From assembly GCA_002840505.1 (NCBI GenBank), contig PHBC01000002.1, forward strand, positions 517,544 through 581,543: a DNA stretch of 64,000 bases. The letters run 5' to 3'. The notes under the pieces were generated by a model that was not told the DNA's origin, did not search any database, and worked only from the letters and a program-made list of their open reading frames with translations. Source of the DNA: Deltaproteobacteria bacterium HGW-Deltaproteobacteria-2. GTDB lineage: Bacteria; Desulfobacterota; Syntrophia; Syntrophales; Smithellaceae. Shown one piece after another: positions 7,178 through 64,000 of this stretch. Position 1 is the first letter of the stretch; each line of letters starts with the position of its first letter. A program made the translations under genes and the position numbers.

Positions 7178-7227
7178 GGACGATCACCACTCGTTTGATT
7201 AAATTCCCGTTAACAATTGGCCATAAA

Positions 7228-24797: not shown

Positions 24798-24872
24798 TGG
24801 TAGGCGGTACTGGATTTGAACCAGTGACTTCTACCGTGTGAAGGTAGCACTCTCCCGCTGAGTTAACCGCCC
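24798..24872 (-). tRNA. tRNA-Val (anticodon CAC)
   Basis: The reverse complement reads GGGCGGTTAACTCAGCGGGAGAGTGCTACCTTCACACGGTAGAAGTCACTGGTTCAAATCCAGTACCGCCTACCA. It has a 7-bp acceptor stem, a D-arm, an anticodon stem CTACC/GGTAG with loop TTCACAC, a T-arm GGTTCAAATCC and an encoded CCA. Confidence 0.9.
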
Positions 24873-28830: not shown

Positions 28831-28886
28831 GACTTTCCTCCTTTGCCTTTTCTTACTTCAATCTTTTGGATTATCTTAAATATTCA

Positions 28887-29516
28887 TCACGCTTTTTTTA
28901 AGCCCTTGATAAATATCTCCAATGCTAATTTAATTGTGGAATGAATTCTTTCTCTTCGTTTTTCCTGCGCCCCCGAAAAAATATACAGGGAGATAATTCC
29001 ATTAAGCAAACCCCAGATCGCATTTCGATTTTGCTTTAAATTAATATCTGCGGAAAATTCTTTTGACGCTGCTTCCTGAAATATTTTTCCAATAACATCT
29101 ATTGACCTGGCATTTGCGTTAATAATTTGAGAGTTAAGCTCCTCTGTTAAATTTATTTTAGCTGGTTGCAGCATGTAGGTCATAAGTATCCTGAATAATT
29201 CTGGCTCATTGAGGAAAAAATCAACATAGATACAGGAGAATTCAAACAGCAAGTCATCCACCGATTTTTTCTCATCAAATAAAACAGAAACATGCTGAGT
29301 AAAGTTATCAATATCATTCAGTAGAATTTGTGCGTAAATTTCTTCTTTACTATTAAAGTAAAGATAAATTGATCCTTTACCTAATTCGGAGGATTTGGCA
29401 ATTTCATCTACGGTAACATTATTAAAACCTTTTTTAAAGAACAGAGTTCGCGCTGATTTGAGAATTAGTTTCTTACGGTTATCTTTCTCTTTTCCTCTAC
29501 GTTCCTGAAGTCCCAA
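28887..29516 (-). CDS. TetR/AcrR-family transcriptional regulator
   Basis: The HTH region is ILKSARTLFFKKGFNNVTVDEIAKSSELGKGSIYLYFNSKEEIY. The track ORF extends to a GTG at 29588 through a palindromic operator-like site. An in-frame TTG at 29516 with the RBS-like AGGAAGAAGG upstream is preferred. Confidence 0.8.
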   Translation of the reverse strand: MGLQERRGKEKDNRKKLILKSARTLFFKKGFNNVTVDEIAKSSELGKGSIYLYFNSKEEIYAQILLNDIDNFTQHVSVLFDEKKSVDDLLFEFSCIYVDFFLNEPELFRILMTYMLQPAKINLTEELNSQIINANARSIDVIGKIFQEAASKEFSADINLKQNRNAIWGLLNGIISLYIFSGAQEKRRERIHSTIKLALEIFIKGLKKA

Positions 29517-29560
29517 AGCAACCTTCTTCCTGCCTGAAATACGCGCATATTTAAAACAAC

Positions 29561-29585
29561 GGTCAATATCTGACCAGCGGTCAGA
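29561..29585. promoter_or_regulatory. Candidate TetR operator (alternating GGTCA/TGACC half-sites)
   Basis: GGTCAatatcTGACCagcGGTCAGA includes the perfect inverted repeat TCTGACC-AGC-GGTCAGA (29569-29585). It lies immediately upstream of the preferred TetR start. Confidence 0.4.
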
Positions 29586-29993
29586 CACAAGTAAAACAAT
29601 AAACCCTAAAAGTCAAGAAAAATAAAATAATTTTTAAGATAAAAATAGTGAAATTTTTTTCTATAATTATAAGGTTAATTTTACAAGTATTTGTATTTAT
29701 GAAACAAAACATAATATTAACGGATAAACGATCGCGCCCAATGGCCGAATCAGATTTATCTTTATGCTAAAATAATTGGTGTTTATATTTCTCAACTATT
29801 ACGAACATCTTGGCATTATTATTCATTGCATATTCATAAATCCCCCCATGTTGTAATACCTATATTTCATTGACATACAAAACGCTTCTTTATATATTCC
29901 CTCTCTAAAAAGAAATTTATTATCAAATTCTTATGTCGGTTCAATAAATTTGCTTTTTCAAACTGCCTCATTCAGAAAGGTACGTGCCGAAAG

Positions 29994-31664: not shown

Positions 31665-31878
31665 TCCGTTGGAAATAGAAAATTCAAAGAATGTTATTCG
31701 ATTAAAATAAGTTAAAAGGAATGTAATTATAGTATGCCCGTCCGGCTATTTTTCTTTGCGCATAATAATTGCATTTTACAAATTCTTCCGATTTTCCTTG
31801 TAGTACAGACTAAATATCTAAAGACTTCTCCAGACAAAAGCTTGTTTAACGATATAGCCCGTAATTGGATAAACTATA

Positions 31879-32322
31879 TTACATGTGTCTTTTTTTAAAA
31901 CTCGGAAGAAAACGAAAAACCCCAAAAATTGTAAATACAGAACCCAGAACAAGCATAAAAAAAGCCGAAACAAGCGAAGGACTACCTCCATACATGGGGA
32001 TATTACGATCGGGATTTGAGGGGTTGTATCTTATTTCCAAATTATCATTAACCTGCAGAGCATCCCACTGTTGCTTGGCGATAATACTGCTGGCGTTTAT
32101 TTTATTGCCGGTGGAAGACATAAACCAATAATCCATATAATAATTGCCGCTGCCGTCAGTAGCCGTCCGATAATGTTTTTTAGTTATATGGCCACCGGCC
32201 CGCCCGCTATACTCCTTTATACGGGTATGTTCTAAATAGATGCCCCAGCTGCCAGCCAGGAAAAAACATCCTATCCCTAGACAGATAAGTCCACCTAAAA
32301 TGCCGGAAAAAGAAACCTTCAA
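31879..32322 (-). CDS. DUF3592-like membrane protein (TM - beta domain - TM)
   Basis: 147 aa with a TTG start preceded by GGAGGT. It has an N-terminal TM, a central beta-rich region and a C-terminal TM (LVSAFFMLVLGSVFTIFGVF). Confidence 0.55.
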   Translation of the reverse strand: MKVSFSGILGGLICLGIGCFFLAGSWGIYLEHTRIKEYSGRAGGHITKKHYRTATDGSGNYYMDYWFMSSTGNKINASSIIAKQQWDALQVNDNLEIRYNPSNPDRNIPMYGGSPSLVSAFFMLVLGSVFTIFGVFRFLPSFKKRHM

Positions 32323-32429
32323 CCTTTACCTCCTGCACCAATTATGTTTTTTTATATGAGAATTGTTTGACTCATTTTAGTAGAAAACACAATAAATTAT
32401 TTTGCAAAAACAAAGTTAAGAATATTATT

Positions 32430-32472
32430 CAGACAAAAAAAGGAGCGTTATAAAACGCCCCTTTTTTGTCTG
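32430..32472 (-). terminator. Bidirectional intrinsic terminator after the major pilin gene
   Basis: CAGACAAAAAAAGGAGCGTT-ATAA-AACGCCCCTTTTTTGTCTG. A GC stem is flanked by A- and T-runs that extend the pairing. It begins 18 nt after the pilin stop. Confidence 0.65.
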
Positions 32473-32489
32473 TTATGAGTTGAATAATT

Positions 32490-32891
32490 CTATTTTGCTG
32501 CCGGGGTTACCACCAACGTACCATTGGTAACAGTATAGACTGCATTAGGTGTACCCAAACCCCAGTTTGCGGAACCGGCACATGTAATAACGAAATTACT
32601 CTCGTTAGTCCAACTACCAACTGTAGTTGATACATCGGAAGACTGAGAATATCCGCCAACTGTTAAATCTGTGGTTCCTACTGTTACACCGCTATGATCA
32701 GCACTATAGGCGATAGCGGCAGTGTAAGCATTTTTACAATCACTATTGATGGTGGCAACATAGCCTCTTTTTCTATACTGTATGAACTGCGGAATAGCGA
32801 TAGCCGCCAGAATACCGATAATCGCGATAACGATCATCAACTCAATCAACGTGAAACCTTTCTGTCCTTCTTTACGGAAAATTTTTAACAT
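32490..32891 (-). CDS. pilA: Type IV major pilin (PilA-like)
   Basis: MLKIFRKEGQKG/FTLIELMIVIAIIGILAAIAIPQFIQYRKRGY is a canonical prepilin leader and alpha1 helix. It is 133 aa with two Cys in the C-terminal half. A strong RBS AAAGGAGG lies upstream. Confidence 0.85.
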   Translation of the reverse strand: MLKIFRKEGQKGFTLIELMIVIAIIGILAAIAIPQFIQYRKRGYVATINSDCKNAYTAAIAYSADHSGVTVGTTDLTVGGYSQSSDVSTTVGSWTNESNFVITCAGSANWGLGTPNAVYTVTNGTLVVTPAAK

Positions 32892-33241
32892 AATAGACCT
32901 CCTTTTATAATAGTATTTTAATTTTTGTTGCTTGCCATGTTACTAATTAACTTTATTTTCCCTATCATACTTTATTTCTCCGACATCTTAAGTTACAGCA
33001 ACATATATGCCAAACACAGCAGACATATCGAATCCATCAATAAAAATATAATTTATTGTGTAAAATCAAAGACAAATATTTAATATGCATCTGGATGAAA
33101 GTAACTATAGATAAAGCCGCCTGCCAAAAAAGTGGTTATTTTCACCAAAACTACCGTGATTTCCACCTTCCACTAATTAATTATTCCCCCTCGTCATAAA
33201 ATATGATATTAATTACCAGTTTAAAATTAAAGAAGGTGGAA

Positions 33242-33613
33242 ATGTACGAAGTTACAATTATAAAATCGTTTTCTTCAGCACATCTTCTGTCCCAAATCGG
33301 CGGAAAATGCGAGGAACTGCATGGCCACAATTTCAAAGTGGAAGTGACTGTTTGGGCAATGGATTTAAAAGAATCGGGATTGCTGATCGACTTTCGGATA
33401 GTTAAAAAATGGCTGGATGAGATTCTGGATCAAATGGACCATAAACACTTAAATGAGCTTCCCTTTTTTTCCGGAATCAATCCATCAGCGGAAAATATAG
33501 CTAAATATATATGCGAAGAAATGGCACTAAAAGTTAAAATATCCGGGGTCAAAGTGGCGCGTATAAAAATCTGGGAATCGGAAAATGCAGCTGTTACTTA
33601 TATACCCCAATAA
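33242..33613 (+). CDS. queD: 6-carboxy-5,6,7,8-tetrahydropterin synthase
   Basis: The size (~123 aa from the ATG at 33242, RBS AAGGTGGA) and the motifs FSSAHLL … CEELHGHNFKVEV fit the PTPS/QueD family. Confidence 0.85.
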   Translation: MYEVTIIKSFSSAHLLSQIGGKCEELHGHNFKVEVTVWAMDLKESGLLIDFRIVKKWLDEILDQMDHKHLNELPFFSGINPSAENIAKYICEEMALKVKISGVKVARIKIWESENAAVTYIPQ

Positions 33614-33646
33614 CGTTAAAACATCTTTTTAAATAATTGCTTTATT

Positions 33647-34414
33647 ATGATTGACATTCAAAACCAGAAAGATTTTCGCAATATAGATATTAAAAAAGTC
33701 GGCGTGAAAAATATAAAATACCCGATTATCGTCCTTGACCGGGTTAAAGGAACACAGATTGTCAACGCAACGATAAATATGTACGTCAATTTGCCTCATC
33801 ATTTCAAAGGCACACACATGAGCCGTTTTATAGAGGCGCTCAATGAATTTAAAGGCCAAATCAGCATTAAAACTTTTCAGTCAATTTTGGAGAAGACAAG
33901 ACAAAAGCTGCATGCGCATTCCGCTCATATGGAAATTGAATTCGCTTATTTTCTGGAAAAAACGGCCCCCGTTTCCAAAGCGAAAAGTCTCATGGAGTAC
34001 CACTGTATATTTTGCGGAGAAAGTAACGCAGAAAAGTCCGATTTCCAGGTGGGAGTCATGGTTCCCGTTACAACCGTCTGCCCCTGCTCACGCGAAATAA
34101 GCCAGTTTGGAGCTCATAATCAGCGCAGCATCGTAACAACAAAGGTCCGTTTCAGAAAATTTTTCTGGATAGAAGATTTGATAAAAATTGTGGAAGATTC
34201 CGCCAGTGGTGAGGTATACTCCCTTTTAAAAAGAGTGGATGAAAAATACGTAACGGAAAAGGCCTATGAAAACCCCAAATTTGTTGAAGACGTCGTTCGC
34301 AGCGTTGCAGTGAAACTAAATAAAGACGATAATTTTACCTGGTATTGCATTGAAGCGGAAAATTTTGAAAGCATTCACAATCACAGCGCTTACGCTTATG
34401 TAGAGAAAGGATAA
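33647..34414 (+). CDS. folE2: GTP cyclohydrolase I type 2 (FolE2/MptA family)
   Basis: [15 protein letters not shown]…, [12 protein letters not shown] and [11 protein letters not shown] are characteristic of GTP cyclohydrolase IB. Confidence 0.85.
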
Positions 34415-34418
34415 ATTC

Positions 34419-36488
34419 ATGCCGGCAAGAAAAAAGAATGAGTTCTTTAATTTGTATAATCATGGTTTTATTCGCACCGCTGTTTGCATTCCGGAACTGA
34501 AGGTTGCCGATACCGTTTTCAACACGCAAAGAACTATTGAACTGGCTCGGGAAGCATCTTCTCATAAGGCAATTCTGACCATTTTTCCGGAGTTGGGATT
34601 ATCCGCTTATTCCAATGAAGATCTGTTTCATCAGGACGCTCTACTGCGGGGCGTTCGTGAAGCTATTACCGAAATTAAAAAAGCGTCTGAAAAGATCAAT
34701 ACCATTATCGTAACCGGCGCACCACTGCAAGTTGATTGCCGTCTTTTCAATTGCGCTGTTGTCTTTTACCACGGGCAAATACTAGGTGTGGCCGTAAAAT
34801 CATACCTGCCTAATTATCGTGAGTTTTATGAAGCCAGACAATTCACTCCCGCCGTCAATGCATTTTCTTACCAGATAGAATTAGCCGGGCAGAAAAATAT
34901 TCCTTTTGGTGCTGATATTATATTTAAAGCTGCCAATATTAATAATTTCATTTTTTTTCTCGAACTTTGCGAAGATTTATGGGTTCCTATCCCGCCATCA
35001 AGTTTTGCGGCAATGACCGGAGCTACCGTTATCGGCAATTTATCAGCGTCCAACATCACCATCGGCAAATCCGAATACCGCCATCAGCTTGCCTCTAATC
35101 AATCAGCTCGCTTAGTCGCCGCTTATCTTTACGCTGCCGCCGGCCCCGGCGAATCCACGACCGATCTGGCCTGGGACGGCCATGCCATGATTTACGAAAA
35201 CGGCAATATCCTTGCCGAATCCGCCCGCTTCGCGCAAAAGGCTCAAATAATTTACAGCGATCTGGATCTTGACCGTCTGGCGCAGGACAGGATGCGCTTA
35301 ACTTCCTTCAGTCAGAACGCCGCCGCTCATAAAGAAAAAGTTTTATCCTTCCGTAGAACGGAATTTAATGTAAGCGTTCCCAATGGAAAGATTCTGTTAA
35401 ATAGAGAATATCCCCGTTTTCCTTACATTCCGGCCGATCCTTCCAAACGCGACCAGCGCTGTTATGAAGCTTACAACATACAGGTTCAGGGCTTATCAAA
35501 ACGTTTGAAGTCGTCAGGCATATCTAGTATTGTTATTGGTGTTTCCGGAGGCCTTGATTCCACTCACGCTCTTATTGTAGCCGCAAAAACAATGGATTCT
35601 CTGAACTTACCCAGATCGAATGTTAAGGCCTACACCATGCCTGGCTTTGCAACGTCCGCGAAAACCTACAACAATGCTTTAAAACTGATGAAAGCACTTG
35701 GCGTGGAAACAAATGAAATCGACATCAAACCAGCCTGTCTGCAAATGTTAAAAGATATTAAACATCCATACGCTAAGGGTAAAAAAACCTTCGATATTAC
35801 TTTTGAAAACGTTCAGGCCGGACAACGTACGGCGCATCTTTTCCGCCTCGCCAACATGCGTAACGCTCTGGTAGTAGGCACGGGAGATTTAAGCGAACTG
35901 GCTTTAGGCTGGAGTACTTACGGAATTGGCGATCATATGTCGCATTATAACGTCAATGCCAGCGTTCCCAAAACTCTTATCCAACATTTAATTCGCTGGG
36001 TCGTAAATACCAATCAATTTTCACGGGAAGTTTCTAAAATTCTCATTGATGTTCTGGAAACGGAAATATCTCCTGAATTGATTCCCGGCAAAACGGGCAG
36101 CCAACCCAATCAAAAATCAGAAAACACTGTTGGCCCTTATGAGCTTCAGGATTTTAATAATTTTTATATAACCCGTTTCGGCTATCTGCCTTCAAAAGTA
36201 GCGTTCTTGGCTTATCATGCCTGGAGGGATAAAACAAAAGGTCTCTGGCCGGACATTGCCACAGATAAAAGAAACGCCTACAGTTTGAAAGAAATTAAAA
36301 AATGGCTTTATGTTTATTTGTACAGATTTTTTAAAACTTCTCAGTATAAACGCTCGTGCGTACCCAATGGACCTAAAGTAGGTTCCGGCGGATCGCTTTC
36401 ACCGCGCGGCGACTACCGCGCTCCCAGTGACAGCGAAGCCGAAATCTGGCTGAAAAATTGGGGAAATATTCCTGATTCCGGAGGGTGA
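34419..36488 (+). CDS. nadE: Glutamine-dependent NAD+ synthetase (long form, CN-hydrolase + synthetase domains)
   Basis: 689 aa with an N-terminal nitrilase-like domain, the PP-loop [12 protein letters not shown] and the C-terminal synthetase region. Confidence 0.9.
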
Positions 36489-36491
36489 CAA

Positions 36492-36695
36492 TTGAAAATG
36501 AGGGAAACCTACAAAGATTTTGATGCCACAGAATTGTTCTGTCCTCGATACAAAAGAGCTGTTGCCGTAAGAAAAAGATTGTTGCTGATTCTCCAGGAAG
36601 GAGAAAAGTATGATTATTGTTGCGTCTATTGCGGAACTTCCGTGGGTGATAAACTGGTCAAAGCAAATATGAATTCAAAACTTATACTTTGCTGA
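36492..36695 (+). CDS. Small Cys-rich (zinc-ribbon-like) hypothetical protein
   Basis: A 67-aa ORF starting 4 nt after the nadE stop. It has the Cys pairs FCPRY … CCVYCG. There is no family assignment, so coding status is uncertain. Confidence 0.35.
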   Translation: MKMRETYKDFDATELFCPRYKRAVAVRKRLLLILQEGEKYDYCCVYCGTSVGDKLVKANMNSKLILC

Positions 36696-36697
36696 TA

Positions 36698-37168
36698 TTA
36701 TTTCTCCGGTTTATTTTTTTGTAGAGCTTTTTTCAATTTTTCGGCAAGCATTCCTGAACCGACAGAAACTTGCGAATCATCATACACCAGACTTACCTCT
36801 TTACTATGCGCATCACCCCCGAGGTATTCCGCCAAGACTCCCCGGCTATGAACATCTTCATGGCAATAGGCGCAAAGATTTTCCCAGTTGCTTCCATCAG
36901 CAGGATTATTGCTGTGATTGCCGTCTTTATGATGAACGGTCAAAAGTTTCCTTTTCGATCCGGGAAACTCCCGGCCGCAACGGGCGCAAACAAGACCATT
37001 AATTGCCAATGATTTTTCCCGGTAATCCTCTCCTGCCGTAGTTTTTTGAGAATCTTTCATTTCCCGAACTAAGTCTTCCGCTGATTTTACCGTTTCCACA
37101 ACAGGCAAGACCGATTTTTTTTGAACTTTAACGCTGCCCCATTTACTGGAGAATGTTACTTTTGCCAT
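36698..37168 (-). CDS. yajD: HNH nuclease family protein (YajD-like)
   Basis: CARCGREF … HHKDGNHSNNPADGSNWENLCAYCHEDVH forms an HNH/zinc-finger core. Confidence 0.7.
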   Translation of the reverse strand: MAKVTFSSKWGSVKVQKKSVLPVVETVKSAEDLVREMKDSQKTTAGEDYREKSLAINGLVCARCGREFPGSKRKLLTVHHKDGNHSNNPADGSNWENLCAYCHEDVHSRGVLAEYLGGDAHSKEVSLVYDDSQVSVGSGMLAEKLKKALQKNKPEK

Positions 37169-37183
37169 TATAATTTCCCCGTA

Positions 37184-37579
37184 TTAAGCTTTTTGTTTTT
37201 TTACAAGAACATCTATAAAAACGCTTATTCCTTTTATAATTGCAATAATATTTTTAAAGGAACTAAAAACAGGCAATTTCATGGCCAGAGGTGCAAAGTA
37301 TTGTATATTGTCAATAACATCATTTATAACCGATCCGGAACGGTTTGTGGTATCAGAAAAATTCTGAATTTTTTTGTTAATCACCGATGTGGAGTTATTA
37401 ACATTTGCGGTAATCTCTTCCATGTTTTTCAATATGGTGGGCAAACTTTTATTCATAGTTTGCAACGTGATTGTCAAATCTTTCGATACACGCCATATCT
37501 GTAAAAGAACGGGAATACAAAATATTATCAGCAGAATAAGAATAACAACTAAAATTAATAAGCCTATTTCTAAATCCAT
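37184..37579 (-). CDS. DUF948-like membrane-anchored coiled-coil protein
   Basis: An N-terminal TM (LLILVVILILLIIFCIPVLL) is followed by a helical region. It is paired with a YtxH-like gene. Confidence 0.55.
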   Translation of the reverse strand: MDLEIGLLILVVILILLIIFCIPVLLQIWRVSKDLTITLQTMNKSLPTILKNMEEITANVNNSTSVINKKIQNFSDTTNRSGSVINDVIDNIQYFAPLAMKLPVFSSFKNIIAIIKGISVFIDVLVKKQKA

Positions 37580-37642
37580 TGATTTTCTCCTTAATTATTT
37601 ATTCTATTTTTATAATTTATTTTTAACTGCTGTAATTAATAA

Positions 37643-38026
37643 TCAATTTGTTTTTTTGATACTTTCTTCTTTGTAAGCTTCTAATCCCGCATCGACCGCT
37701 TTTCTCAACCTAATTTTATTATCCTCGATAACTTCGGAGCCTTGTTGAGCAAATTCATTTATCCGCCCTTCCACTTCCTCCATTTTTTCTTTTGCCGATA
37801 TTTCCAAATCCTTCAAATGCTTAACAGTTGTTTCACAAATCGCTTTACCTTTTTCTATGGCATTTTCATACCCTTCTTTGGCATGCTCTAAGAATTCATC
37901 TGTTTTGCGGATGATATCCTCTCGTGTCTCCTTGCCGCTTTTGGGCGCAAACAATATTCCCAGAGCAACTCCAATCAATCCGCCAATAAATAAACCTTTT
38001 AATAAATCACCGCTTTTTTCGGACAT
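37643..38026 (-). CDS. YtxH-domain protein
   Basis: GLFIGGLIGVALGILFAPKSGKETREDI is the typical YtxH N-terminus. The rest is a charged helical region. Confidence 0.7.
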   Translation of the reverse strand: MSEKSGDLLKGLFIGGLIGVALGILFAPKSGKETREDIIRKTDEFLEHAKEGYENAIEKGKAICETTVKHLKDLEISAKEKMEEVEGRINEFAQQGSEVIEDNKIRLRKAVDAGLEAYKEESIKKTN

Positions 38027-38194
38027 AAAACACCTCCAAAGTTATTCATATTCAATTTCTTTTGCATGTAACATTTTTTATAAGAAAGGAAAAAACTTCC
38101 AGCAAGATATTTCAATGCCATCTTACCCGGAATTACAAATAATTTAATTTTTTTGCATTATAACACAATAAAATAATTTAAGCCTTATATAGAA

Positions 38195-38232
38195 TAAAAA
38201 ATCGGACATTCACAAAAATGTAAATGTCCGAT
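38195..38232 (-). terminator. Intrinsic terminator after the small lipoprotein gene
   Basis: The stem ATCGGACATT / AATGTCCGAT has a 12-nt loop. An A-run at 38195-38200 gives a U-tract on the minus transcript. Confidence 0.6.
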
Positions 38233-38263
38233 TAATTTGTCCTGCGACTTTATTTTAAAGCAA

Positions 38264-38452
38264 TTATTTTGCAGGTGCCGGTGCGGCTTCAGGAGCAGGT
38301 ACTGCAGTAGCTGCAGGTGCAGGAGCAACAGGTACTTCGACTTTAGGAGCCTCTGCTGGTGCCGGCTCTTCAGCTTTTTTACAGCCTACGACTGCAAAAG
38401 ATAAAGAAGCAACAAAAAGCATAGCGACAAAAATAGCAAATATTTTTTTCAT
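38264..38452 (-). CDS. Small Ala/Pro-rich lipoprotein
   Basis: It has a signal peptide with a lipobox (SFAVVGC), followed by AEEPAPAEAPKVEVPVAPAPA… An RBS AAAGGAGG lies upstream. Confidence 0.55.
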   Translation of the reverse strand: MKKIFAIFVAMLFVASLSFAVVGCKKAEEPAPAEAPKVEVPVAPAPAATAVPAPEAAPAPAK

Positions 38453-38665
38453 TAACGCCTAACCTCCTTTCAAAGATTTCGTAATGCCCGGCTTAAACAA
38501 GCCAAGTCTTTGTATTGAAGGGGAAGAATACGCTTTTTTTTCACCTTGTCAAGAACAAATTTAACAATTCTTTAAGGTGTATGCATGTATTGTAAGTAAG
38601 TTTTATATATGCTATTTAACTCATAATTAAGAAACCTTTGCGAAAATTTTATAATTTAATTGTAT

Positions 38666-39466
38666 ATGAAAAAACATACTCATAAGTATTTAGAAAAAAT
38701 GGAAGAATTGAAGCAATTAATCAAAAAACTCCGTGCGCCAGACGGCTGTCCCTGGGATCAACAACAAAAGAAGGAGGATATAAGGAAATATATCTTGGAA
38801 GAGGCTTATGAAGTAGTTGATTCTATTGACAAGGGAAGTCCTCAAGCTATAAAAGAAGAATTGGGCGATTTACTCTTTCAAATATTATTTCTGACTGAAA
38901 TATGCTCCGAATCAAACCTTTTTTCTCTGAGTGATGTTCTGGACGGAATTATAACAAAAATGATCCGGCGGCACCCGCATGTTTTTGGCAGTAAAAAAGT
39001 AAACTCCGTGCAGGAAGTGAAGGAAAACTGGCAGCAAATAAAGAAATTAGAACGAAAAAATAAAAATGTTGAAGAAGATTTGTTTTCCGGCGTTCCTCTT
39101 TCATTTCCGGCTTTGAAAAGAGCTCAAAAAATAACAGCCATTGCTTCTGCTTACGGTTTCGATTGGTCCAAAACGCAGGATGTAATAAATAAATTGAAAG
39201 AAGAAATTAAAGAGCTAAGAACTGCCGTAAAAAACAGCAATGAAGATGAGATTGAAGAAGAATTAGGCGATATCTTATTTACCCTGGTCAATGTAAGCCG
39301 TTTCTTGTCTGTTGACGCGGAAAACGCCTTATCAAAAACAACAGAAAAGTTTTTACGCCGATTTTCTTATCTGACTGAACAATTATCCGCTAGAGGCATA
39401 CCCATTAAAGATGCAACTTTAGCCCAAATGGATGCGCTCTGGAATGAAGCAAAATCAAGGGTATGA
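38666..39466 (+). CDS. mazG: Nucleoside triphosphate pyrophosphohydrolase MazG
   Basis: It has two MazG repeats with EEAYEVVDSI…ELGDLLFQI and EELGDILFTLVNVSRF. The N-terminus reads LRAPDGCPWD. Confidence 0.85.
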   Translation: MKKHTHKYLEKMEELKQLIKKLRAPDGCPWDQQQKKEDIRKYILEEAYEVVDSIDKGSPQAIKEELGDLLFQILFLTEICSESNLFSLSDVLDGIITKMIRRHPHVFGSKKVNSVQEVKENWQQIKKLERKNKNVEEDLFSGVPLSFPALKRAQKITAIASAYGFDWSKTQDVINKLKEEIKELRTAVKNSNEDEIEEELGDILFTLVNVSRFLSVDAENALSKTTEKFLRRFSYLTEQLSARGIPIKDATLAQMDALWNEAKSRV

Positions 39467-39479
39467 ATCCCTCAGCTTT

Positions 39480-39496
39480 GTCCCGATTCATCGGGG
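39480..39496. repeat. Short dispersed hairpin GTCCCGATTCATCGGGG (copy 1)
   Basis: A 16-nt core, GTCCCGATTCATCGGG, is identical at 46390-46405. The stem is CCCGA/TCGGG and the location is intergenic. Confidence 0.6.
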
Positions 39497-39598
39497 TTCA
39501 ACTTACCGGCTCCGATACGCCCATAGCGACCCCGTGGTGCCCTTCAGTGTATTTAGGTTATTCGCTGAAACTGGAGTTTCACAAACAAAGGATTGAAT

Positions 39599-39790
39599 AT
39601 GAAATATTTTCTCTGCGTAGTGGGCATGGTTTTTATCATTGAAGGTTTGCCTTACTTTCTCTTCCCGGAAAAATTGAAAATCTATTTGCTTAAAATAACA
39701 ACTATCGATGACTCCGCTTTACGATTTTTAGGAATATCCGCAATGATTTTCGGGCTGATTCTGCTGTATTTCGGACGAAACCGAGAGTAA
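39599..39790 (+). CDS. DUF2065-like small membrane protein
   Basis: A two-TM small protein (MKYFLCVVGMVFIIEGLPYFLFPEKL…). The ATG at 39599 has AAGGA upstream. Confidence 0.55.
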   Translation: MKYFLCVVGMVFIIEGLPYFLFPEKLKIYLLKITTIDDSALRFLGISAMIFGLILLYFGRNRE

Positions 39791-39857
39791 TTATATTGAC
39801 ATCCACATCGTAATCTGATTATTTGCCAAAACTTTTTCATTTTGCACAAAGAGATAT

Positions 39858-40895
39858 ATGGAATTAAAAGATTTTTCATATTTTTTACCCGATGAACTCA
39901 TCGCTCAGCACCCCTGCCAAAAGCGGGACCAATCACACTTGCTTGTTCTGGACAAGAAGAAAGAAAAAATGGCGGATTTCTCTTTTTTTCAACTACCTGA
40001 TTTCTTACAAAGCGGTGATGTTCTCGTCATTAACGATTCTCGTGTTATTCCCGCAAGACTTTTTGGTAAAAAGCCGACCGGAGGCATTCTGGAAATATTG
40101 CTTTTAACCAGGAAAGCAAATGAAAAAGATTCTCAAACATGGGAAGTGCTGCTAAGATCTGCCAAGAAACTGCAGGAGAATGATGTTATAGACCTCGGCA
40201 ATAAATGCGAGGCAAAGGTTTTAGCCCGCATATCTGATAAAAAATGGTTGCTGGAATTTTTTTCACTATATGGTTTTGAAGCTTATTTGAATACTTACGG
40301 CCGCGTCCCCCTGCCCCCTTACATTAAGCGTAAAAAAAATGCTGAATCGAATATTACCGACCGCGAACGTTACCAGACTATTTACGCGAAAAATCCGGGC
40401 TCAGTTGCTGCCCCAACCGCAGGACTGCATTTTTCTGCTGATGTTTTGCAAACATTGCAAAAGAAAGGTATTCAAATAGCTCCGATAACTCTACACGTTG
40501 GATATGGAACTTTTATGCCTATCGAAGTAAATGAAGTGGAAAAACATGTTATGGAATCAGAGTATTATGAGATAAATGCGGAGTCCAGCCAAATAATTAA
40601 CAATTCAAAGCGGGTAATTGCGGTGGGAACGACCGCTACCCGCACATTAGAGAGTGTTGCCGATGATGATGGATATATCCCCGCAAAGTCCGGCACTACC
40701 AATTGTTTTATTTATCCCGGTTATAAATTTAAAAGAGTTAAGGGACTTTTAACCAATTTTCATTTGCCGCAATCATCATTATTTTTACTTGTCTGCGCTT
40801 TCGCCGGGACAGACTTAATTAAGAAAGCTTATCAACACGCCGTAGAAAGCCGTTATCTTTTTTATAGTTACGGCGACTGCATGCTTATTATTTAG
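39858..40895 (+). CDS. queA: S-adenosylmethionine:tRNA ribosyltransferase-isomerase
   Basis: F.Y.LP.ELIAQHP at the N-terminus, VPLPPYIKR, and TAGLHFS with VGTTATRTLES. Confidence 0.9.
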   Translation: MELKDFSYFLPDELIAQHPCQKRDQSHLLVLDKKKEKMADFSFFQLPDFLQSGDVLVINDSRVIPARLFGKKPTGGILEILLLTRKANEKDSQTWEVLLRSAKKLQENDVIDLGNKCEAKVLARISDKKWLLEFFSLYGFEAYLNTYGRVPLPPYIKRKKNAESNITDRERYQTIYAKNPGSVAAPTAGLHFSADVLQTLQKKGIQIAPITLHVGYGTFMPIEVNEVEKHVMESEYYEINAESSQIINNSKRVIAVGTTATRTLESVADDDGYIPAKSGTTNCFIYPGYKFKRVKGLLTNFHLPQSSLFLLVCAFAGTDLIKKAYQHAVESRYLFYSYGDCMLII

Positions 40896-45640: not shown

Positions 45641-46273
45641 ATGGCTGAAAATAATAAAACAAAAGAAAAAAGAAAATCGAAAGTTAAAGAATACGTTGAA
45701 TCAATCATCATAGCGATTTTGATCGCTCTTTTTATCCGCACATTTATAATCTGTGCATACAAGATACCTTCCCGCTCCATGGTACCGACTCTGTTGGTTG
45801 GAGATCATATTTTAGTCAGTAAATTTATTTATGGCATTAAAATTCCTCTTTTAAGAAAAACTATTGTCCCTATTAGCAACCCGCAAAGAGGTGATATTGT
45901 AGTTTTCATTTACCCCAACGACCGGTCGAAAGATTTCATCAAGAGGGTGATCGGCATGGCCGGTGACAAAATTGAAATAAAAAATAAAAAAATATTCATC
46001 AATGATAAAGAATATAAAGATTCTTATGGTATATACAGCGATAGCGTAATTTATCCGGCTTCTATCCAGAACCGCGATAATTTCGGACCGGTTACAGTTC
46101 CTGAAAAATCTATTTTTGTCATGGGTGATAACCGCGACGAAAGTCTGGACAGCCGTTTCTGGGGATTTGTCAATTTAAAAGATGTTGAAGGAAAAGCTTT
46201 TATAATATACTGGTCGTGGAACCGCGAAGATCATAATCTCCGTTGGCAAAGGCTGGGCAATTTGTTACATTAA
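45641..46273 (+). CDS. lepB: Signal peptidase I
   Basis: The Ser nucleophile box is PSRSMVPTL. Other motifs are KRVIGMAGD and GDNRDESLDSRFWG. Confidence 0.85.
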   Translation: MAENNKTKEKRKSKVKEYVESIIIAILIALFIRTFIICAYKIPSRSMVPTLLVGDHILVSKFIYGIKIPLLRKTIVPISNPQRGDIVVFIYPNDRSKDFIKRVIGMAGDKIEIKNKKIFINDKEYKDSYGIYSDSVIYPASIQNRDNFGPVTVPEKSIFVMGDNRDESLDSRFWGFVNLKDVEGKAFIIYWSWNREDHNLRWQRLGNLLH

Positions 46274-46389
46274 TACCAATTCTAAAGGAAATTTTCGCCC
46301 TGTTGGCGAAAATTCTCGGTAATGTAAGATTCTATTTATTACGCACGCCTTGCGGAAATGCGCTCCCGATCAAGGCGCTATTTTTGTTG

Positions 46390-46406
46390 GTCCCGATTCA
46401 TCGGGA
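46390..46406. repeat. Short dispersed hairpin GTCCCGATTCATCGGGA (copy 2)
   Basis: It has the same 16-nt core as 39480-39495. It is intergenic, between the convergent lepB and NRAMP genes. Confidence 0.6.
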
Positions 46407-46502
46407 TTGTCAGCTTCCTCAACGTATATAAAATACGCCTCGTCGTCTTTGCCCATCCGCCTTAATATCATCTCTGATTTAGAAATGGTAATCAGTAGAT
46501 AT

Positions 46503-47765
46503 TTAGTCAAAGAATGCCGATATTACCATAGCCACGGAAAGACAATTCAGAATAACAACTGTTGCCCAGGAAACAATATTCATCAACCGGCCATTTACAT
46601 AATTACCCATAATTCGTTTATCATTGATCAAAAGAAGCATAAAAATCAGAATAAAGGGAAGCAGCATTCCGTTAATAACCTGCGAATAATACATGATGCC
46701 GATCAAAGGCACATTGGGCAGAAGAATAAACCCTGCACCCAGAAAAATCATTAACGAATACATGCCGTAAAACTGCGGCGCTTCGGCGAATTTGCTGTTT
46801 AAGCTTGATTCCCATCCAAACGCCTCACAAATTGTATAAGCTGTGGAAAGCGGCAGAATGGAAGCGGCAAAAAGAGAGGCATTAAGCAAACCGAAGGCGA
46901 ATAAAGAAGCAGCGTATGACCCTGCCAGAGGAACCAGCGCCAAAGCCGCATCCTTGGCTGTTTCAATTTTAAACCCGTGTTGAAACAACGTAACAGCACA
47001 AAGCATTATAATAAAAAACGCCACCACATTAACGGTTATCGAACCGAAGATAACATCCATTCGCGAATATTTATAACTCTCTGCTTTTAAACCCTTGTCT
47101 ACGATGGATGATTGAAGGTAAAACTGCATCCATGGTGCGATCGTTGTTCCAACGATACCTATGGCCATAGTAAGCATTCCGGTATCGAAGTTCATGGTTG
47201 GTGTAAAGGCAGCTTTACTGATTGCCGACCAGTCGGGATGCACAATAAATCCGGAAATAATATAGGAAAGATAAAAAACACAGGCGATTAGAAAAACCTT
47301 TTCCACTGATTTATAATTTCCTTTTACCACCATCCACCACACAAGAATAGCGCCAACCGGAACCGAGATATGTTTACTAACACCGAATATTTCCATACTG
47401 GCGGCAATTCCGGCAAACTCGGATAATGTATTTCCTAAATTAGCCAGGAAAAGAACAATCATCAAATAGAAAGTGATTTTTGCCCCGAAACGTTCGCGAA
47501 TTAAATCCGAAAGACCCTTGCCGGAAACAACGCCCATGCGGGCGCACATTTCCTGAATAATTATTAAGGCAACGGTTACGGGGATAAGTATCCAAATTAA
47601 TTTCAAGCCATAATGAGCACCGGCCAAAGAATAAGTGGTAATACCGCCGGCATCGTTGTCCACATTGGACGTGATTATTCCCGGGCCAATCAATGCAAAA
47701 AAAAGACCGATTTTCCAGAAGCCTTTTTGTAATATTTTTTCCCAAAGCTGTTTTATTTTATTCAT
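46503..47765 (-). CDS. NRAMP-family transporter with non-canonical metal site (NRAMP-related Mg2+ transporter-like)
   Basis: 420 aa with ~11 TM helices. The TM1 motif GPGIITSNVDNDAGG replaces the canonical …DPGN. The TM6 motif VGTTIAPW replaces the canonical GA(T)xMPH. Confidence 0.8.
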   Translation of the reverse strand: MNKIKQLWEKILQKGFWKIGLFFALIGPGIITSNVDNDAGGITTYSLAGAHYGLKLIWILIPVTVALIIIQEMCARMGVVSGKGLSDLIRERFGAKITFYLMIVLFLANLGNTLSEFAGIAASMEIFGVSKHISVPVGAILVWWMVVKGNYKSVEKVFLIACVFYLSYIISGFIVHPDWSAISKAAFTPTMNFDTGMLTMAIGIVGTTIAPWMQFYLQSSIVDKGLKAESYKYSRMDVIFGSITVNVVAFFIIMLCAVTLFQHGFKIETAKDAALALVPLAGSYAASLFAFGLLNASLFAASILPLSTAYTICEAFGWESSLNSKFAEAPQFYGMYSLMIFLGAGFILLPNVPLIGIMYYSQVINGMLLPFILIFMLLLINDKRIMGNYVNGRLMNIVSWATVVILNCLSVAMVISAFFD

Positions 47766-47794
47766 AGTTCTTCTTGCAAATTCAGCTTAAGTTG

Positions 47795-49057
47795 TTATTT
47801 TTCCAACTGAGGAGCGACAACTTCCAAAAGATTCTTAAATATAATGGTCCCATGCATCCGGTCATTTTCATCAACAACAGGAATAGCTGTTACTCCGTAT
47901 TTAGCAAAATGTTCGGCAATCGTATCATCATTATCATCAAGTTTTACCGAAATGACACGCTCATCCATCAGCTCTTCGAGTTTTTTGTCCTGATCGGCCA
48001 GAATTAAATCACGTAAAGTTACTACCCCCAAAAGATGTTCTTCGTCGTCAGTAACGTACACATAATAAACCATTTCAATATCCGCCGCTTCCTGGCGAAA
48101 TCTTTCCAGTGTTTCTTGTACAGTCATTGATGGACGGAAACTTAAGTAAGACGTTGTCATCATACCACCGGCTTCTCTTTCCGGATGGGTTAAGAGCTCC
48201 TTGACATCATCGGCAATATCCTTTTCCATTTCGTTTAAAATTCCCTCGGCCTTGGCTTTGGGCAAATCAGCAATAAGGTCGGCGGCTTCAGATAAAGACA
48301 TTTCTTCGATAATATCTGAGGCTTTTTCCGAGTTAAGATCATTAATCAGACTGACCTGAACCTTGGGATCAGTTTCTTCAAGAGTTTCCGCCGCAGTCTC
48401 GACATCAAGAGCCTGAAATACAGCAGCACGCTGCTTAATGTCCATTTCTTCGAGAATATCCGCCAAGTCAGCCGGATGAATTTTACCGAGCCTGTTCTGA
48501 GTTATATTCAAGCGCAGCAAATCCGGCGAATGCACCGGCTGTACGAATTTCCACGAAATAAACTGATTGGGTAATTTGTAGTCGAATAGCCCCTGAAAAA
48601 TTATATCAAAAGGTTTTATCAAACCCATGCGGCGGATCACACCACGAAAACCTACATCAACGTGGACGAGATGCATCCCCTGGCTTGTTTTTAAAAACTG
48701 AAGATCATTAACCCTTCTGATCTTGGCTCCATCAGTATCCACAACCTGCTTATCCAATAAGGCGTCCTTGAGTAGCAGTTCCCCCTGCCGCAAATTAAGA
48801 GTAAGCAACTCACTTGTTGAATGTATGGAAACGGATACATCTCCATTAAAATCAACTACGTTTCCCCAAGGAAGAAAAACGGGATTTTCTTTTTGCGCGG
48901 AACTGAATATTATTCCGGTAACTATAGGAAAAGGATCAATAAACTCCGCGGCTAAATCATAAACTTTGCCCAGGGTTTCGCCTCCGGCTCCGATAATTTT
49001 TTTCCCCAGAATTCTGCTTAAAAATAAAAAAATTTCGGGATCCTGATTTATATCCAT
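47795..49057 (-). CDS. Soluble MgtE-like regulatory protein: PRC-barrel(s) + MgtE N-domain + CBS pair, no transmembrane domain
   Basis: 420 aa. PRC-barrel-like segments are LGKKIIGAGGETLGKVYDLAAEF… and LLDKQVVDTDGAKIRRVNDL. The acidic MgtE_N-type helices are HPADLADILEEMDIKQRAAVFQALDVETAAETLEE. A CBS pair follows (…VYVTDDEEHLLGVVTLRDL…, …IPVVDENDRMHGTIIFKNLL). No hydrophobic helices are present. The NRAMP gene starts 29 nt downstream of its stop. Confidence 0.75.
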   Translation of the reverse strand: MDINQDPEIFLFLSRILGKKIIGAGGETLGKVYDLAAEFIDPFPIVTGIIFSSAQKENPVFLPWGNVVDFNGDVSVSIHSTSELLTLNLRQGELLLKDALLDKQVVDTDGAKIRRVNDLQFLKTSQGMHLVHVDVGFRGVIRRMGLIKPFDIIFQGLFDYKLPNQFISWKFVQPVHSPDLLRLNITQNRLGKIHPADLADILEEMDIKQRAAVFQALDVETAAETLEETDPKVQVSLINDLNSEKASDIIEEMSLSEAADLIADLPKAKAEGILNEMEKDIADDVKELLTHPEREAGGMMTTSYLSFRPSMTVQETLERFRQEAADIEMVYYVYVTDDEEHLLGVVTLRDLILADQDKKLEELMDERVISVKLDDNDDTIAEHFAKYGVTAIPVVDENDRMHGTIIFKNLLEVVAPQLEK

Positions 49058-49129
49058 TTTCCCCTCCGAATTTTCATTTATATCAGTTATTCTTTTTTAA
49101 CAAAAGTTTTTTTGAATTATTTTTTCATC

Positions 49130-49158
49130 TTGACATTTTAACACCTTAGTTGTATTAA
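49130..49158 (+). promoter_or_regulatory. Sigma70-type promoter of the pyr operon
   Basis: TTGACA (49130-49135), a 17-bp spacer, then TATTAA (49153-49158). Confidence 0.6.
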
Positions 49159-49170
49159 AAATCAGATTTT

Positions 49171-49271
49171 ACCCTTTTAATTTAATCCGGTGAGATTGAA
49201 AAAGGAAAACATAATGAAATGTTTATCAAGATATTATCAAGCCTTTCTCCTTTCGGGGGAAGGCTTTTTTT
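49171..49271 (+). promoter_or_regulatory. PyrR-type transcription attenuator (PyrR binding loop + intrinsic terminator)
   Basis: CUUUUAAUUUAAUCCGGUGAGAUUGAAAAAGG resembles the PyrR binding-loop consensus (…UCCAGAGAGGCU…). The terminator AAGCCTTTCTCC-TTTCG-GGGGAAGGCTT plus TTTTTTT follows at 49239-49271, just upstream of pyrR. Confidence 0.55.
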
Positions 49272-49296
49272 ATAACATTACCCGAGGTTGACACGT

Positions 49297-49845
49297 ATGT
49301 CGAACAATAAAAACATCAAAACAGTAATGGATAAGGACGGGATTGAAAGATGCCTCACCCGAATCGCTTATGAAATTCTGGAAAAAAATAAAGGCATGGA
49401 AAACCTTGTACTCGTCGGCATAAGAACCGGTGGAGTTTATCTGGCCCAAAGACTACAGAAGAAAATGTCCGATATCGAACACGGAAAGATTCCTCTGGGA
49501 ATACTTGATATAACTCTCTATCGTGATGATATTTCCGCGTCCAACAAGAAACCTCGCCTCGGGGAAACAAAAATAAATTTCTCTCTTGATGATAAAATAG
49601 TCATACTCGTTGATGATGTCCTCTTTACCGGTCGAACCATCCGAGCGGCAATGGACGCACTGATTGATTTCGGACGCCCCAGGATGATTCAGCTTGCCGT
49701 TTTAATCGACCGCGGCCATCGCGAACTCCCGATAAGAGCCGATTTTGTCGGCAAAAATCTCCCCTCTTCTCTTTGGGAAGCCGTCCGTGTCGACCTGGTG
49801 GAAAAAAACGGTGTGGATGAGGTTGTCATAGAAGAAGGACCATAA
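49297..49845 (+). CDS. pyrR: Bifunctional pyrimidine operon regulator / uracil phosphoribosyltransferase PyrR
   Basis: The PRPP-binding motif is VILVDDVLFTGRTIRAAMDAL. The ~180-aa size fits. The ATG at 49297 lies inside the track ORF, which starts at TTG 49288. Confidence 0.9.
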   Translation: MSNNKNIKTVMDKDGIERCLTRIAYEILEKNKGMENLVLVGIRTGGVYLAQRLQKKMSDIEHGKIPLGILDITLYRDDISASNKKPRLGETKINFSLDDKIVILVDDVLFTGRTIRAAMDALIDFGRPRMIQLAVLIDRGHRELPIRADFVGKNLPSSLWEAVRVDLVEKNGVDEVVIEEGP

Positions 49846-49869
49846 ATTAAAAACTTTTTAAGGCTTGTT

Positions 49870-50796
49870 ATGAAATTTGAAAGAAAAGATATTCTGGGAA
49901 TAAAAGACTTATCCGTTGATGAGATAAATTTCATTCTGGAGACAGCGGAATCTTTTTTGGAAGTATCCACCCGTAAAATAAAGAAAGTGCCCACACTGCG
50001 CGGTAAAACAATCATCAATCTTTTTTATGAAGCAAGTACGCGCACCAGAACATCTTTCGAAATCGCCGGCAAACGATTAAGCGCCGACACTATCAACATT
50101 TCAGCTTCAACCAGTTCCGTGGTCAAGGGAGAAACTCTTATTGACACCGCCCGCAATCTGGAAGCCATGAATCCCGACGTCATTGTCATCCGCCACAGCG
50201 CTTCCGGAGCTCCGCAAATGCTGGCCTCACTGGTTAAACAATCTATCATCAATGCCGGCGATGGCGCGCATGAACACCCAACGCAGGCTCTGCTGGATAT
50301 GATGACTATTAAAGAACACAAAAGTAAAATCGCCGGATTGAAGGTGGCGATAATCGGCGATATCGAACACAGCCGTGTCGCCCGTTCCAATATTTACGGC
50401 CTGTCCAAAATGGGCGCTGATGTTGTCCTGGCCGGTCCGGCGACCATGCTGCCGCGCGATATCGAACAAATGGGTGTAAAAGTTTTTAACAAGATGGAAG
50501 AAGCTATTGAAGGCGCGGACGTAGTAATGATGCTGCGCATTCAGTTGGAAAGGCAAAAACAAAGCATCTTCCCGTCACTGCGCGAATATTCCCAGCATTA
50601 CTGCCTTAACCGCAACAACATTAAACTAGCCCAAAAAGATGTCATCGTTATGCATCCGGGACCGATTAACCGTGGCGTGGAAATATCGCCCGACATTGCC
50701 GACGATTCTTCTTATTCTGTAATTCTTGATCAGGTGAACAAAGGCGTGGCCGTAAGAATGGCACTGCTTTACCTGCTCACCGGAGGTAGTGAATGA
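49870..50796 (+). CDS. pyrB: Aspartate carbamoyltransferase catalytic subunit
   Basis: [23 protein letters not shown], and the HPGPINRG motif. Confidence 0.9.
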
Positions 50797-52091
50797 AACT
50801 ATTATTAACCGGCGCGAGAATAATAGATCCCGCGCAAAACATAGACTCCCGAATGGATATTTTTCTGGAAGACGGTAAAATTGCCAAGATTGGCGCAAAT
50901 CTTTCCAAGTCATTAAAATCAAAAGATTCAGAAAAAACATCGAAGATTATTGATTTGGCCGGAATGATTATCGTTCCCGGGCTGATTGATATGCACACAC
51001 ATCTGCGCGAACCTGGTTTTGAATACAAAGAAACAATAGCATCAGGAGCCGCTGCCGCAATTGCCGGTGGATTTACCTCTATTGCCTGCATGCCCAACAC
51101 CAATCCGATTAACGATAATCGTTCCATTACAGAATTTATCAAAAGAAAAGCAGCGGAGGCCGCGCTGGTTAATGTTTATCCGATTGGCGCCATCAGCATG
51201 GATTCAGCAGGTTCAAAGCTTACAGAATTCTGGGACCTCAAAGAAGCGGGCATTGTCGCGCTTTCCGACGACGGCAATCCGGTAATGAACGCCGCCCTGA
51301 TGCGCAGGGCTATGGAATATGCCTTCTCCCTGCAATTACCGGTTATTTCGCACTGCGAAGACACAAACCTCTCTGCGGATGGGTTGATGAACGAAGGTTA
51401 TTATTCAACCATCCTGGGACTGCGCGGTATCCCCGGCATCGCGGAAGAAGCAATGATTGCCCGTGATATTCTAATTGCCGAATTTACCAAGACTTGTGTT
51501 CACATAGCGCATGTCAGCACGGCCGGTTCCGTTCGCCTGATTCGCGATGCCAAAAAAAGAGGTCTGAAAGTAACGGCGGAGACCGCACCCCACTATTTCA
51601 CTCTGACCGAAGAATCACTTCAGGGCTATGATACCAACTTCAAAATCAATCCCCCGTTAAGAAGTGAAAAGGACATCGCGGCAATTAAAGAAGGTCTTGC
51701 CGACGGAACGATTGATGTCATTGCCTGCGACCATGCTCCCCACGGACGTACAGATAAAGAAGTGGAATTCGAATACGCTGCCAACGGAATCAGCGGTTTG
51801 GAAACATCGCTGGGATTAAGCTTAAATCTAATCAACAGCAAAATTCTTAATTGGCCGGAATTAATTGCCAAGATGAGCTTAAATCCGGCGCGCATCTTGA
51901 ATTTGCCGAAAGGAACGCTGGAGACAGGCGCGGATGCCGATATCACCGTAATCGATCCCCAACTCAAATGGACTGTTGATGTGCAGGCGTTTCGCTCGCG
52001 CGGGAAAAACTCTCCGTTTCATGGACGCCAGATGCAGGGCAAAGCTATCCTTACGATCGTAGGCGGTGAAATAAAATTTGATGGTCGCTAG
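50793..52091 (+). CDS. pyrC: Dihydroorotase
   Basis: [14 protein letters not shown], with the amidohydrolase metal ligands (HVS…, CDHAPH). It overlaps the pyrB stop by 4 nt. Confidence 0.9.
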
Positions 52092-63503: not shown

Positions 63504-63515
63504 TCATGTTTTAAA

Positions 63516-63630
<115 letters not shown>

Positions 63631-63729
63631 AATTCCTTATATAATTGCGTGACAATGCATATCGCACCTACTGCTTAGTTGAAAGCAAAGCGCTATAGTA
63701 AATATGAGACCATATATATAAATAATTAT

Positions 63730-64000
<271 letters not shown>

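Follow-up and report, generated by a model that had tools for sequence, protein, structure and literature searches.

An nrmT operon in a Smithella genome pairs an NRAMP-related Mg2+ transporter with a soluble PRC-barrel homologue of the MgtE cytosolic domain

In a Smithella genome two genes make up an operon of the known nrmT type, which lies within a 64,000-nucleotide stretch of contig PHBC01000002.1 (positions 517,544 to 581,543; assembly GCA_002840505.1) that is called the window throughout. Its downstream gene, nrmT, encodes an NRAMP-related Mg2+ transporter (NRMT), and its upstream gene encodes a soluble partner in which two PRC barrels precede the N-domain and CBS pair of the Mg2+ channel MgtE. 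The two genes are conserved together, in the same order and on the same strand, across the related loci surveyed. We propose, with a probability of roughly 0.55, that the NRMT is held in check in trans by the partner, which would serve as a cation-dependent inhibitory subunit.

The gene pair itself is not new, and the Smithella locus is a typical nrmT operon that establishes no new principle. The NrmT group was named by Shin et al. (2014, PLoS Genet; PMC4072509), who described the pairing of nrmT with an MgtE fragment and proposed feedback regulation, giving chaperone activity as an alternative role for the partner. A prediction made earlier from the DNA sequence had described the locus as a hybrid of two Mg2+ transport families; an NRMT does indeed stand beside a homologue of MgtE domains, but the idea had already been published as speculation in 2014 (PMC4072509). 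The present analysis adds quantitative synteny in both directions, the membrane-fused relatives of the partner and a clade-specific loss of one Mg2+ site (Mg4). The tandem PRC-barrel architecture is new relative to the literature searched, in which no paper linked PRC barrels with MgtE, or with magnesium and CBS domains together.

The operon and its transporter

Both genes are encoded on the minus strand, with the partner gene upstream and nrmT downstream:

47795..49057, minus strand: soluble partner gene, PRC-PRC-MgtE_N-CBS-CBS, 420 aa (open reading frame, Pfam, AlphaFold2)
46503..47765, minus strand: nrmT, NRAMP-related Mg2+ transporter of the SLC11 NRMT subclade, 420 aa (open reading frame, Pfam, PDB match)
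47766..47794, minus strand: spacer of 29 nt between the genes, without a terminator-like site and with a purine-rich stretch ahead of the nrmT ATG
49063-49067, minus strand: GGAGG, Shine-Dalgarno sequence of the partner gene, five nt ahead of its ATG

The spacer between the partner stop and the nrmT start has exactly the length originally predicted. A promoter and terminator scan detected no terminator-like site between the two genes, and the promoter-like sites that it reported were no more frequent than in shuffled sequence. A hairpin behind nrmT (about 46291-46314) was considered as a terminator and did not qualify as one. A 134-aa open reading frame of low-complexity composition (46350-46754, plus strand), most likely spurious, overlaps the 3' end of nrmT in antisense orientation.

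By sequence criteria the nrmT product is a bona fide NRMT and not a canonical MntH. It has about ten hydrophobic segments and matches the Pfam Nramp profile (PF01566) at 4.8e-104 over profile positions 1-356 of 357. When compared with all PDB sequences, its best match was the Eggerthella lenta NRMT (EleNRMT; 7qia, E=3.9e-115, 388 bits), whereas canonical MntH/NRAMP structures reached at most 106 bits (E=1e-29 for canonical MntH), and NCBIfam MntH models scored far under their cut-offs (142 versus 430). Alignment with characterised NRAMP and NRMT sequences, which had been proposed as a check, brings the protein closer to the NRMT than to canonical MntH. The alignment with EleNRMT is gap-free over 401 residues (45% identity) and places two motifs on its metal site:

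47643..47660, minus strand: helix-1 site motif DNDAGG, residues 36-41, with D38 and G41 on EleNRMT D55 and G58
47130..47150, minus strand: helix-6 site motif GTTIAPW, residues 206-212, with T207, A210 and W212 on EleNRMT T224, A227 and W229

These are the site substitutions that had been read from the stretches VDNDAGG and VGTTIAPW. The rule behind that reading (Asp kept, Asn replaced by Gly, Ala by Thr and Met by Ala) agrees with the residues named by Ramanadane et al. (2022; PMC8806188), for whom D55, G58, T224, A227 and the Trp set NRMTs apart from NRAMPs. E116 and Q362 correspond to EleNRMT E133 and Q379 in the ungapped alignment, and E116 is kept among the proton-pathway residues compared. 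Both helix-6b His residues of the proton pathway are replaced: the first is W212, as in EleNRMT, and the second is Leu here and Asn in EleNRMT. The metal-site residues are identical to those of EleNRMT (PDB 7qia, 7qic), which carries Mg2+ and Mn2+ without proton coupling and requires T224 for Mg2+ transport (PMC8806188). EleNRMT was characterised by itself, and a partner gene is never mentioned in that work (PMC8806188).

In the nrmT operons of C. acetobutylicum (Ca_c0685, Ca_c3329) and A. capsulatum (ACP2976/ACP2977), as in Smithella, the transporter gene is directly downstream of a gene for an MgtE cytoplasmic domain. The A. capsulatum pair resembles the Smithella pair in having no M-box riboswitch, while Ca_c0685 differs in carrying an M-box and in having its partner split into two genes. 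The 2014 paper presents the partner as a small MgtE N-terminal fragment, and tandem PRC barrels, which make up the first 180 residues of the Smithella protein, are not described there. The host lineage of the Smithella operon, Syntrophales, also differs from the hosts of the 2014 operons.

The soluble partner and its membrane-fused relatives

The partner is built from four structural units:

48830..49030, minus strand: PRC barrel 1, residues 10-76 (Pfam PRC at 31.3 bits with a cut-off of 21.2; beta-rich AlphaFold2 model; Foldseek)
48536..48781, minus strand: PRC barrel 2, residues 93-174, of which 137-158 form a helical insert (hhalign, AlphaFold2, Foldseek)
48179..48499, minus strand: MgtE N-domain, residues ~187-293 (Pfam; aligns with residues 24-130 of T. 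thermophilus MgtE, TtMgtE; 28 D+E versus 11 K+R)
47816..48172, minus strand: CBS pair, residues 296-414 (Pfam, in two stretches)

Pfam recognises MgtE_N (6.4e-27), CBS in two stretches (4.5e-17) and PRC (2.1e-07), which bears out the predicted composition of the 420-aa protein (PRC, acidic MgtE N-domain, CBS pair). The matches of both proteins reflect strong homology and are no chance likeness. No hydrophobic segment was found in the partner, the highest 19-residue Kyte-Doolittle mean being 1.32, so the predicted lack of transmembrane helices also stands. The protein as a whole is strongly acidic (75 D+E versus 42 K+R). Barrel 2 alone matches Pfam PRC weakly (E=0.05), and profile-profile comparison with hhalign relates it to barrel 1 with 91% probability (E=9e-7).

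Residues 189-415 align with TtMgtE 24-253 at E ~1e-35. An AlphaFold2 model of the partner, built with 127 diverse homologues, has a mean predicted local distance difference test score (pLDDT) of 92, and its N-domain and CBS pair superimpose on the Mg2+-bound MgtE cytosolic domain 2yvy with a template-modelling score of 0.89 and a root-mean-square deviation of 2.1 Å. Fold and arrangement of these domains are thus those of TtMgtE (2yvx, 2yvy). A separate model of residues 1-185 (pLDDT 91) matched PRC-barrel proteins in Foldseek, among them archaeal CdpB1/B2, the reaction-centre H subunit, MTH1859 and RimM. The partner differs from MgtE at both ends: two PRC barrels are added at the N-terminus, and the chain stops ~5 residues past CBS2, at TtMgtE ~253-258, so that the plug helix and the five-helix membrane domain (PF01769) with the pore residue Asp432 are missing. 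Without a pore, the partner counts as a homologue of MgtE's cytosolic domain and not as an MgtE channel.

MgtE is gated by cytosolic Mg2+ sites (Maruyama et al. 2018; PMC5882242), in line with the role of gating Mg2+ sensor that the original prediction ascribed to the MgtE N-domain and CBS pair. Using the site assignments of that study, we compared the ligands over 127 soluble homologues, which here constitute the family:

Mg4, TtMgtE D91: acidic in 83% of the family; S256 in the Smithella partner
Mg4, TtMgtE D247: acidic in 80% of the family; N409 in the Smithella partner
Mg5, TtMgtE D226: acidic in 27% of the family; G388 in the Smithella partner
Mg5, TtMgtE D250: acidic in 73% of the family; E412 in the Smithella partner
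Mg6, TtMgtE D95: acidic in 99% of the family; D260 in the Smithella partner
Mg7, TtMgtE E59: acidic in 83% of the family; E224 in the Smithella partner

The Mg4 ligand pair co-varies, with both residues acidic in 98 sequences, neither in 18 and a mixed pair in 11 (Fisher p=5e-13, with no correction for phylogeny). Nearly all of the 120 closest relatives of the Smithella partner have likewise lost both Mg4 ligands.

In TtMgtE, ATP binds this pair and tunes gating, and the substitution F227A abolishes ATP binding (PMC5529423). An alternative is that the CBS pair of the partner senses adenine nucleotides and so would couple uptake to the energy state of the cell and not to free Mg2+. The phosphate and ribose ligands Y170, R187 and D188 of TtMgtE are kept as Y332, R349 and D350 (in 87%, 79% and 66% of the family). 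However, the stacking residue F227 is V389 in Smithella and mostly Leu across the family, which makes nucleotide binding by the partner uncertain, and N203 is not conserved. Moreover, ATP modulates Mg2+ sensing in MgtE and does not replace it. We consider a pure nucleotide sensor very unlikely.

The partner module also occurs as part of larger membrane proteins. A search of 1.84 billion cluster representatives with the partner returned at least 794 clusters at E<1e-30, most of them 410-450 aa long and covering the whole query. Among the top 150 cluster representatives, 18 have 593-749 aa and carry membrane helices after CBS2, and in several of these the fused region is recognised as the MgtE membrane domain PF01769. 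The uncharacterised PRC-barrel full-length MgtE-like channels (P0178, P0184, P0222, P0249) have the same PRC-PRC-MgtE_N-CBS module as the Smithella partner (33-38% identity), including the invariant patch of barrel 2 described below, and differ from it in possessing their own C-terminal five-helix MgtE-type membrane domain. In a crude neighbour-joining tree rooted on TtMgtE, 16 of the 18 membrane-fused proteins lie nearest the root, which suggests that a PRC-bearing MgtE channel may have given rise to the soluble partner by losing its pore. No adjacent NRMT gene was found at the membrane-fused loci examined. A direct (Rosetta stone) fusion of sensor and transporter was likewise not found, either in the top 150 cluster representatives or among the 160 loci surveyed; the longest of those representatives, at 749 aa, has a non-Nramp membrane tail.

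Multi-helix tails follow the module in further proteins (P0194, P0245 and P0269, and loci L090, L097, L110, L114, L129, L132 and L159). The tails of P0194, P0245 and P0269 are not identified as MgtE by Pfam, and those of the seven loci gave no match in phmmer searches with the P0178 and P0194 tails. P0269 has an additional long acidic C-terminal tail. These unrecognised membrane tails may represent a divergent or a different type of pore.

The most conserved positions of the family are all in barrel 2 (D102, Q104, D107, R115, N117, D118, D134, R142, R143, W169). Among them, four Asp, three Arg, one Asn and one Gln form a near-invariant cluster that is kept in soluble and membrane-fused forms alike; neither the barrel 2 patch nor the Mg-site residues are less conserved in the fused than in the soluble proteins. 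The cluster could be an extra metal or ligand site or an interdomain interface.

Conservation of the pair and its genomic surroundings

Conservation of the operon was assessed from both genes. From the transporter side, a scan of one genome per GTDB species with the NRMT alignment as query gave at least 576 loci, of which the best 80 (58-99% identity) were used for counting. A PRC-PRC-MgtE_N-CBS gene lies directly upstream on the same strand in all 76 NRMT loci that have upstream DNA, the remaining four beginning at a contig edge. The motif DNDAGG is present in 78 of the 80 loci and GTTIAPW in 74. The closest match was Smithella sp. SCADC (99%), and the bacterial hosts span about ten phyla (Desulfobacterota, Zixibacteria, Omnitrophota, Nitrospirota, Planctomycetota, Spirochaetota, Chloroflexota, WOR-3, Myxococcota and Firmicutes). 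Three methanogen lineages (Methanothrix, Methanosarcinales and Methanocellaceae) are the archaeal hosts of the pair. In the methanogen loci L043, L053, L054 and L059 the NRMT is 60-62% identical to the Smithella protein, and the distribution suggests that the operon has passed as a whole between bacteria and methanogens of common anaerobic habitats.

Gaps between the genes in relatives are short, often 1-36 nt, and in many loci the partner's stop codon overlaps the nrmT start codon by 1 or 4 nt. The two proteins have correlated pairwise identities over the loci (r=0.92), with the partner evolving faster than the NRMT (median identity 37% versus 61%). The pairing extends to an Eggerthellaceae orthologue 91% identical to EleNRMT, where a 450-aa PRC/MgtE_N/CBS gene ends 4 nt before the transporter gene. 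Two loci depart from the simple arrangement. In L066 (4444-5998) the partner is split over two frames into a PRC-only and an MgtE_N/CBS open reading frame; this recalls the two-gene partner reported for C. acetobutylicum and could reflect a frameshift, a pseudogene or an assembly error. In L152 (4074-8028) two tandem NRMT paralogues (5427-6680 and 6748-8028) come after a single partner gene.

From the partner side, a metagenome scan seeded with distant partner sequences yielded 80 loci:

53/80: soluble partner gene followed directly by nrmT
16/80: partner module fused to a C-terminal multi-helix membrane domain
5/80: soluble partner gene with downstream DNA present and no nrmT
6/80: contig end too near to classify

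An NRMT gene thus follows 53 of the 58 soluble partner genes that have downstream DNA (91%). The co-occurrence count that had been proposed as a check on the pairing shows the two genes co-conserved in order and strand (76/76 and 53/58). Five soluble partner genes have no adjacent NRMT gene (L093, L094, L112, L126, L147); their neighbours are unrelated, such as an enolase-like open reading frame in L126, and these stand-alone partners could act on a transporter encoded elsewhere.

Such stand-alone genes bear on whether the partner is a gate at all. It might instead serve as a metal chaperone or buffer in the cytosol, help to assemble or stabilise the transporter, or regulate another target. 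Chaperone activity was the alternative offered by Shin et al. (PMC4072509), the 75 acidic residues of the partner would fit it, and PRC barrels are general protein-protein adaptors; the top fold matches here are CdpB1/B2, the reaction-centre H subunit and RimM. However, the occurrence of the same module fused to MgtE-type pores, together with the preferential conservation and co-variation of the gating-site residues, points to an allosteric role of the gating type, and synteny that exceeds 90% whichever gene is taken as the start, together with the overlap of stop and start codons, suggests that this protein and the transporter are stoichiometric partners. We therefore regard a role unconnected with gating as distinctly unlikely.

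No M-box (RF00380) was detected in 46200-49500, either at the Rfam gathering score or at E<=10, and an iterated nhmmer profile gave the same result. The 230-nt region upstream of the operon is instead occupied by the PyrR attenuator of the divergent pyrR-pyrB-pyrC genes. This PyrR-binding attenuator (49169-49273, plus strand; RF00515, 58 bits), with a terminator-like hairpin at 49239-49266, precedes pyrR-pyrB-pyrC (49288-52091) and fills most of the intergenic region shared with the promoter of the partner gene. In Geomonas an M-box does precede the partner gene (Rfam, 143 bits), and the iterated profile found one in 9 of the 160 related loci. Because most lineages, including Smithella, lack an M-box, any Mg2+ responsiveness there would have to be post-translational.

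The M-box occurs in only a subset of nrmT operons and was proposed as a marker of Mg2+ specificity (PMC4072509), and its absence from the window could mean that the Smithella pair serves mainly for uptake of Mn2+, or of divalent metals in general, with the partner responding to Mn2+ or another signal. Precedent comes from the riboswitch-less A. capsulatum pair, which restored a Mn2+-transport mutant in full but a Mg2+ mutant only in part; Shin et al. concluded that its transporter is probably a Mn2+ importer and that high-affinity Mg2+ transport is confined to a subset of NrmT proteins (PMC4072509). EleNRMT, too, carries Mn2+ (PMC8806188), and the Smithella partner is without the Mg4 ligand pair. 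Against this, the metal site is identical to that of EleNRMT, for which T224-dependent Mg2+ transport was measured, and the acidic residues of Mg6 and Mg7 and the D250 equivalent are kept in the partner. Furthermore, no M-box was found at the Eggerthellaceae locus of the close EleNRMT relative, so that absence of the riboswitch is no argument against Mg2+. A system devoted chiefly to Mn2+ is, on balance, unlikely.

Elsewhere in the window, a cyclic di-GMP-I riboswitch aptamer lies at 12454-12543 (plus strand; RF01051, 64.5 bits), a tRNA gene at 24801-24872 (minus strand), and 5S rRNA with the 3' end of 23S rRNA at the window edge (63515-64000, minus strand). The stretches 28000-34000 and 36000-40000 have 36-38% G+C, compared with about 43-48% in the rest of the window, and may be acquired DNA.

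Proposed regulation of the transporter in trans

The components of the two-polypeptide Mg2+ system that was originally predicted are in place, namely a transporter of NRMT identity, a pore-less homologue of the MgtE cytosolic domain and co-conservation of their genes; regulation in trans is a step that we infer. In the mechanism we propose, the NRMT would act as a LeuT-fold SLC11 carrier whose enlarged, hard-ligand site (Asp, Gly, Thr and Ala in place of Asp, Asn, Ala and Met) passes largely hydrated Mg2+, and also Mn2+, without proton coupling. The soluble partner would be its detachable regulatory subunit. When cytosolic divalent cation (and perhaps adenine nucleotide too) is high, a cation would bind between the partner's N-domain and its CBS pair and lock the partner in a compact state that keeps the transporter inactive; as the cation level falls, the partner would let go of the transporter.

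Among prokaryotic Mg2+ importers, NRMTs make up the fourth family, and they are uncoupled. In CorA and MgtE, cytosolic Mg2+-binding domains serve as a brake. An uncoupled electrogenic carrier working with an inside-negative potential has no intrinsic brake and would presumably need one, which would explain why the partner gene is nearly constant. Where the module is fused to MgtE-type membrane domains, gating in cis is the natural reading; regulation by the Smithella partner would act in trans on a fold unrelated to that of MgtE.

Several observations weigh against the partner being an inhibitory subunit. NRMTs transport without a partner both in B. subtilis (PMC4072509) and in liposomes (PMC8806188). 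In the one published test, co-expression of the A. capsulatum pair left Mg2+ rescue unchanged (PMC4072509); this is weak evidence, since an inhibitory subunit is not expected to improve rescue and the negative result is uninformative for that reason. Both Mg4 ligands (S256/N409) and the counterpart of D226 are missing from the Smithella partner and from its whole clade. The plug helix, with the Mg2 and Mg3 sites of MgtE, is missing from the partner, so any gating must differ from that of MgtE. The barrel 2 patch was considered as an NRMT-specific docking site and ruled out, because it is equally conserved in membrane-fused relatives and is thus a feature of the module, not a surface specific to NRMTs. 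Finally, there are the five soluble partner genes without a neighbouring NRMT gene.

A wider proposal, which we put forward tentatively and would hold at somewhat less than even odds, is that PRC-PRC-MgtE_N-CBS is a portable divalent-cation gating cassette, acting in cis on MgtE-type pores and in trans on LeuT-fold NRMTs, with the barrel 2 patch (D102, D107, R115, N117, D118, D134, R142, R143) as its coupling surface or as an extra metal site.

The question at stake is how cells avoid over-accumulating Mg2+ or Mn2+ through uncoupled NRMTs. The partner has been known since 2014 but has stayed outside structural and biochemical work, and the synteny described here reaches an orthologue of the crystallised protein itself. 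Synteny, tandem PRC barrels and membrane-fused relatives together sharpen the hypothesis that NRMTs are regulated by their partner. If the module is indeed a portable gating cassette, in vitro work on NRMTs alone would have missed their physiological brake.

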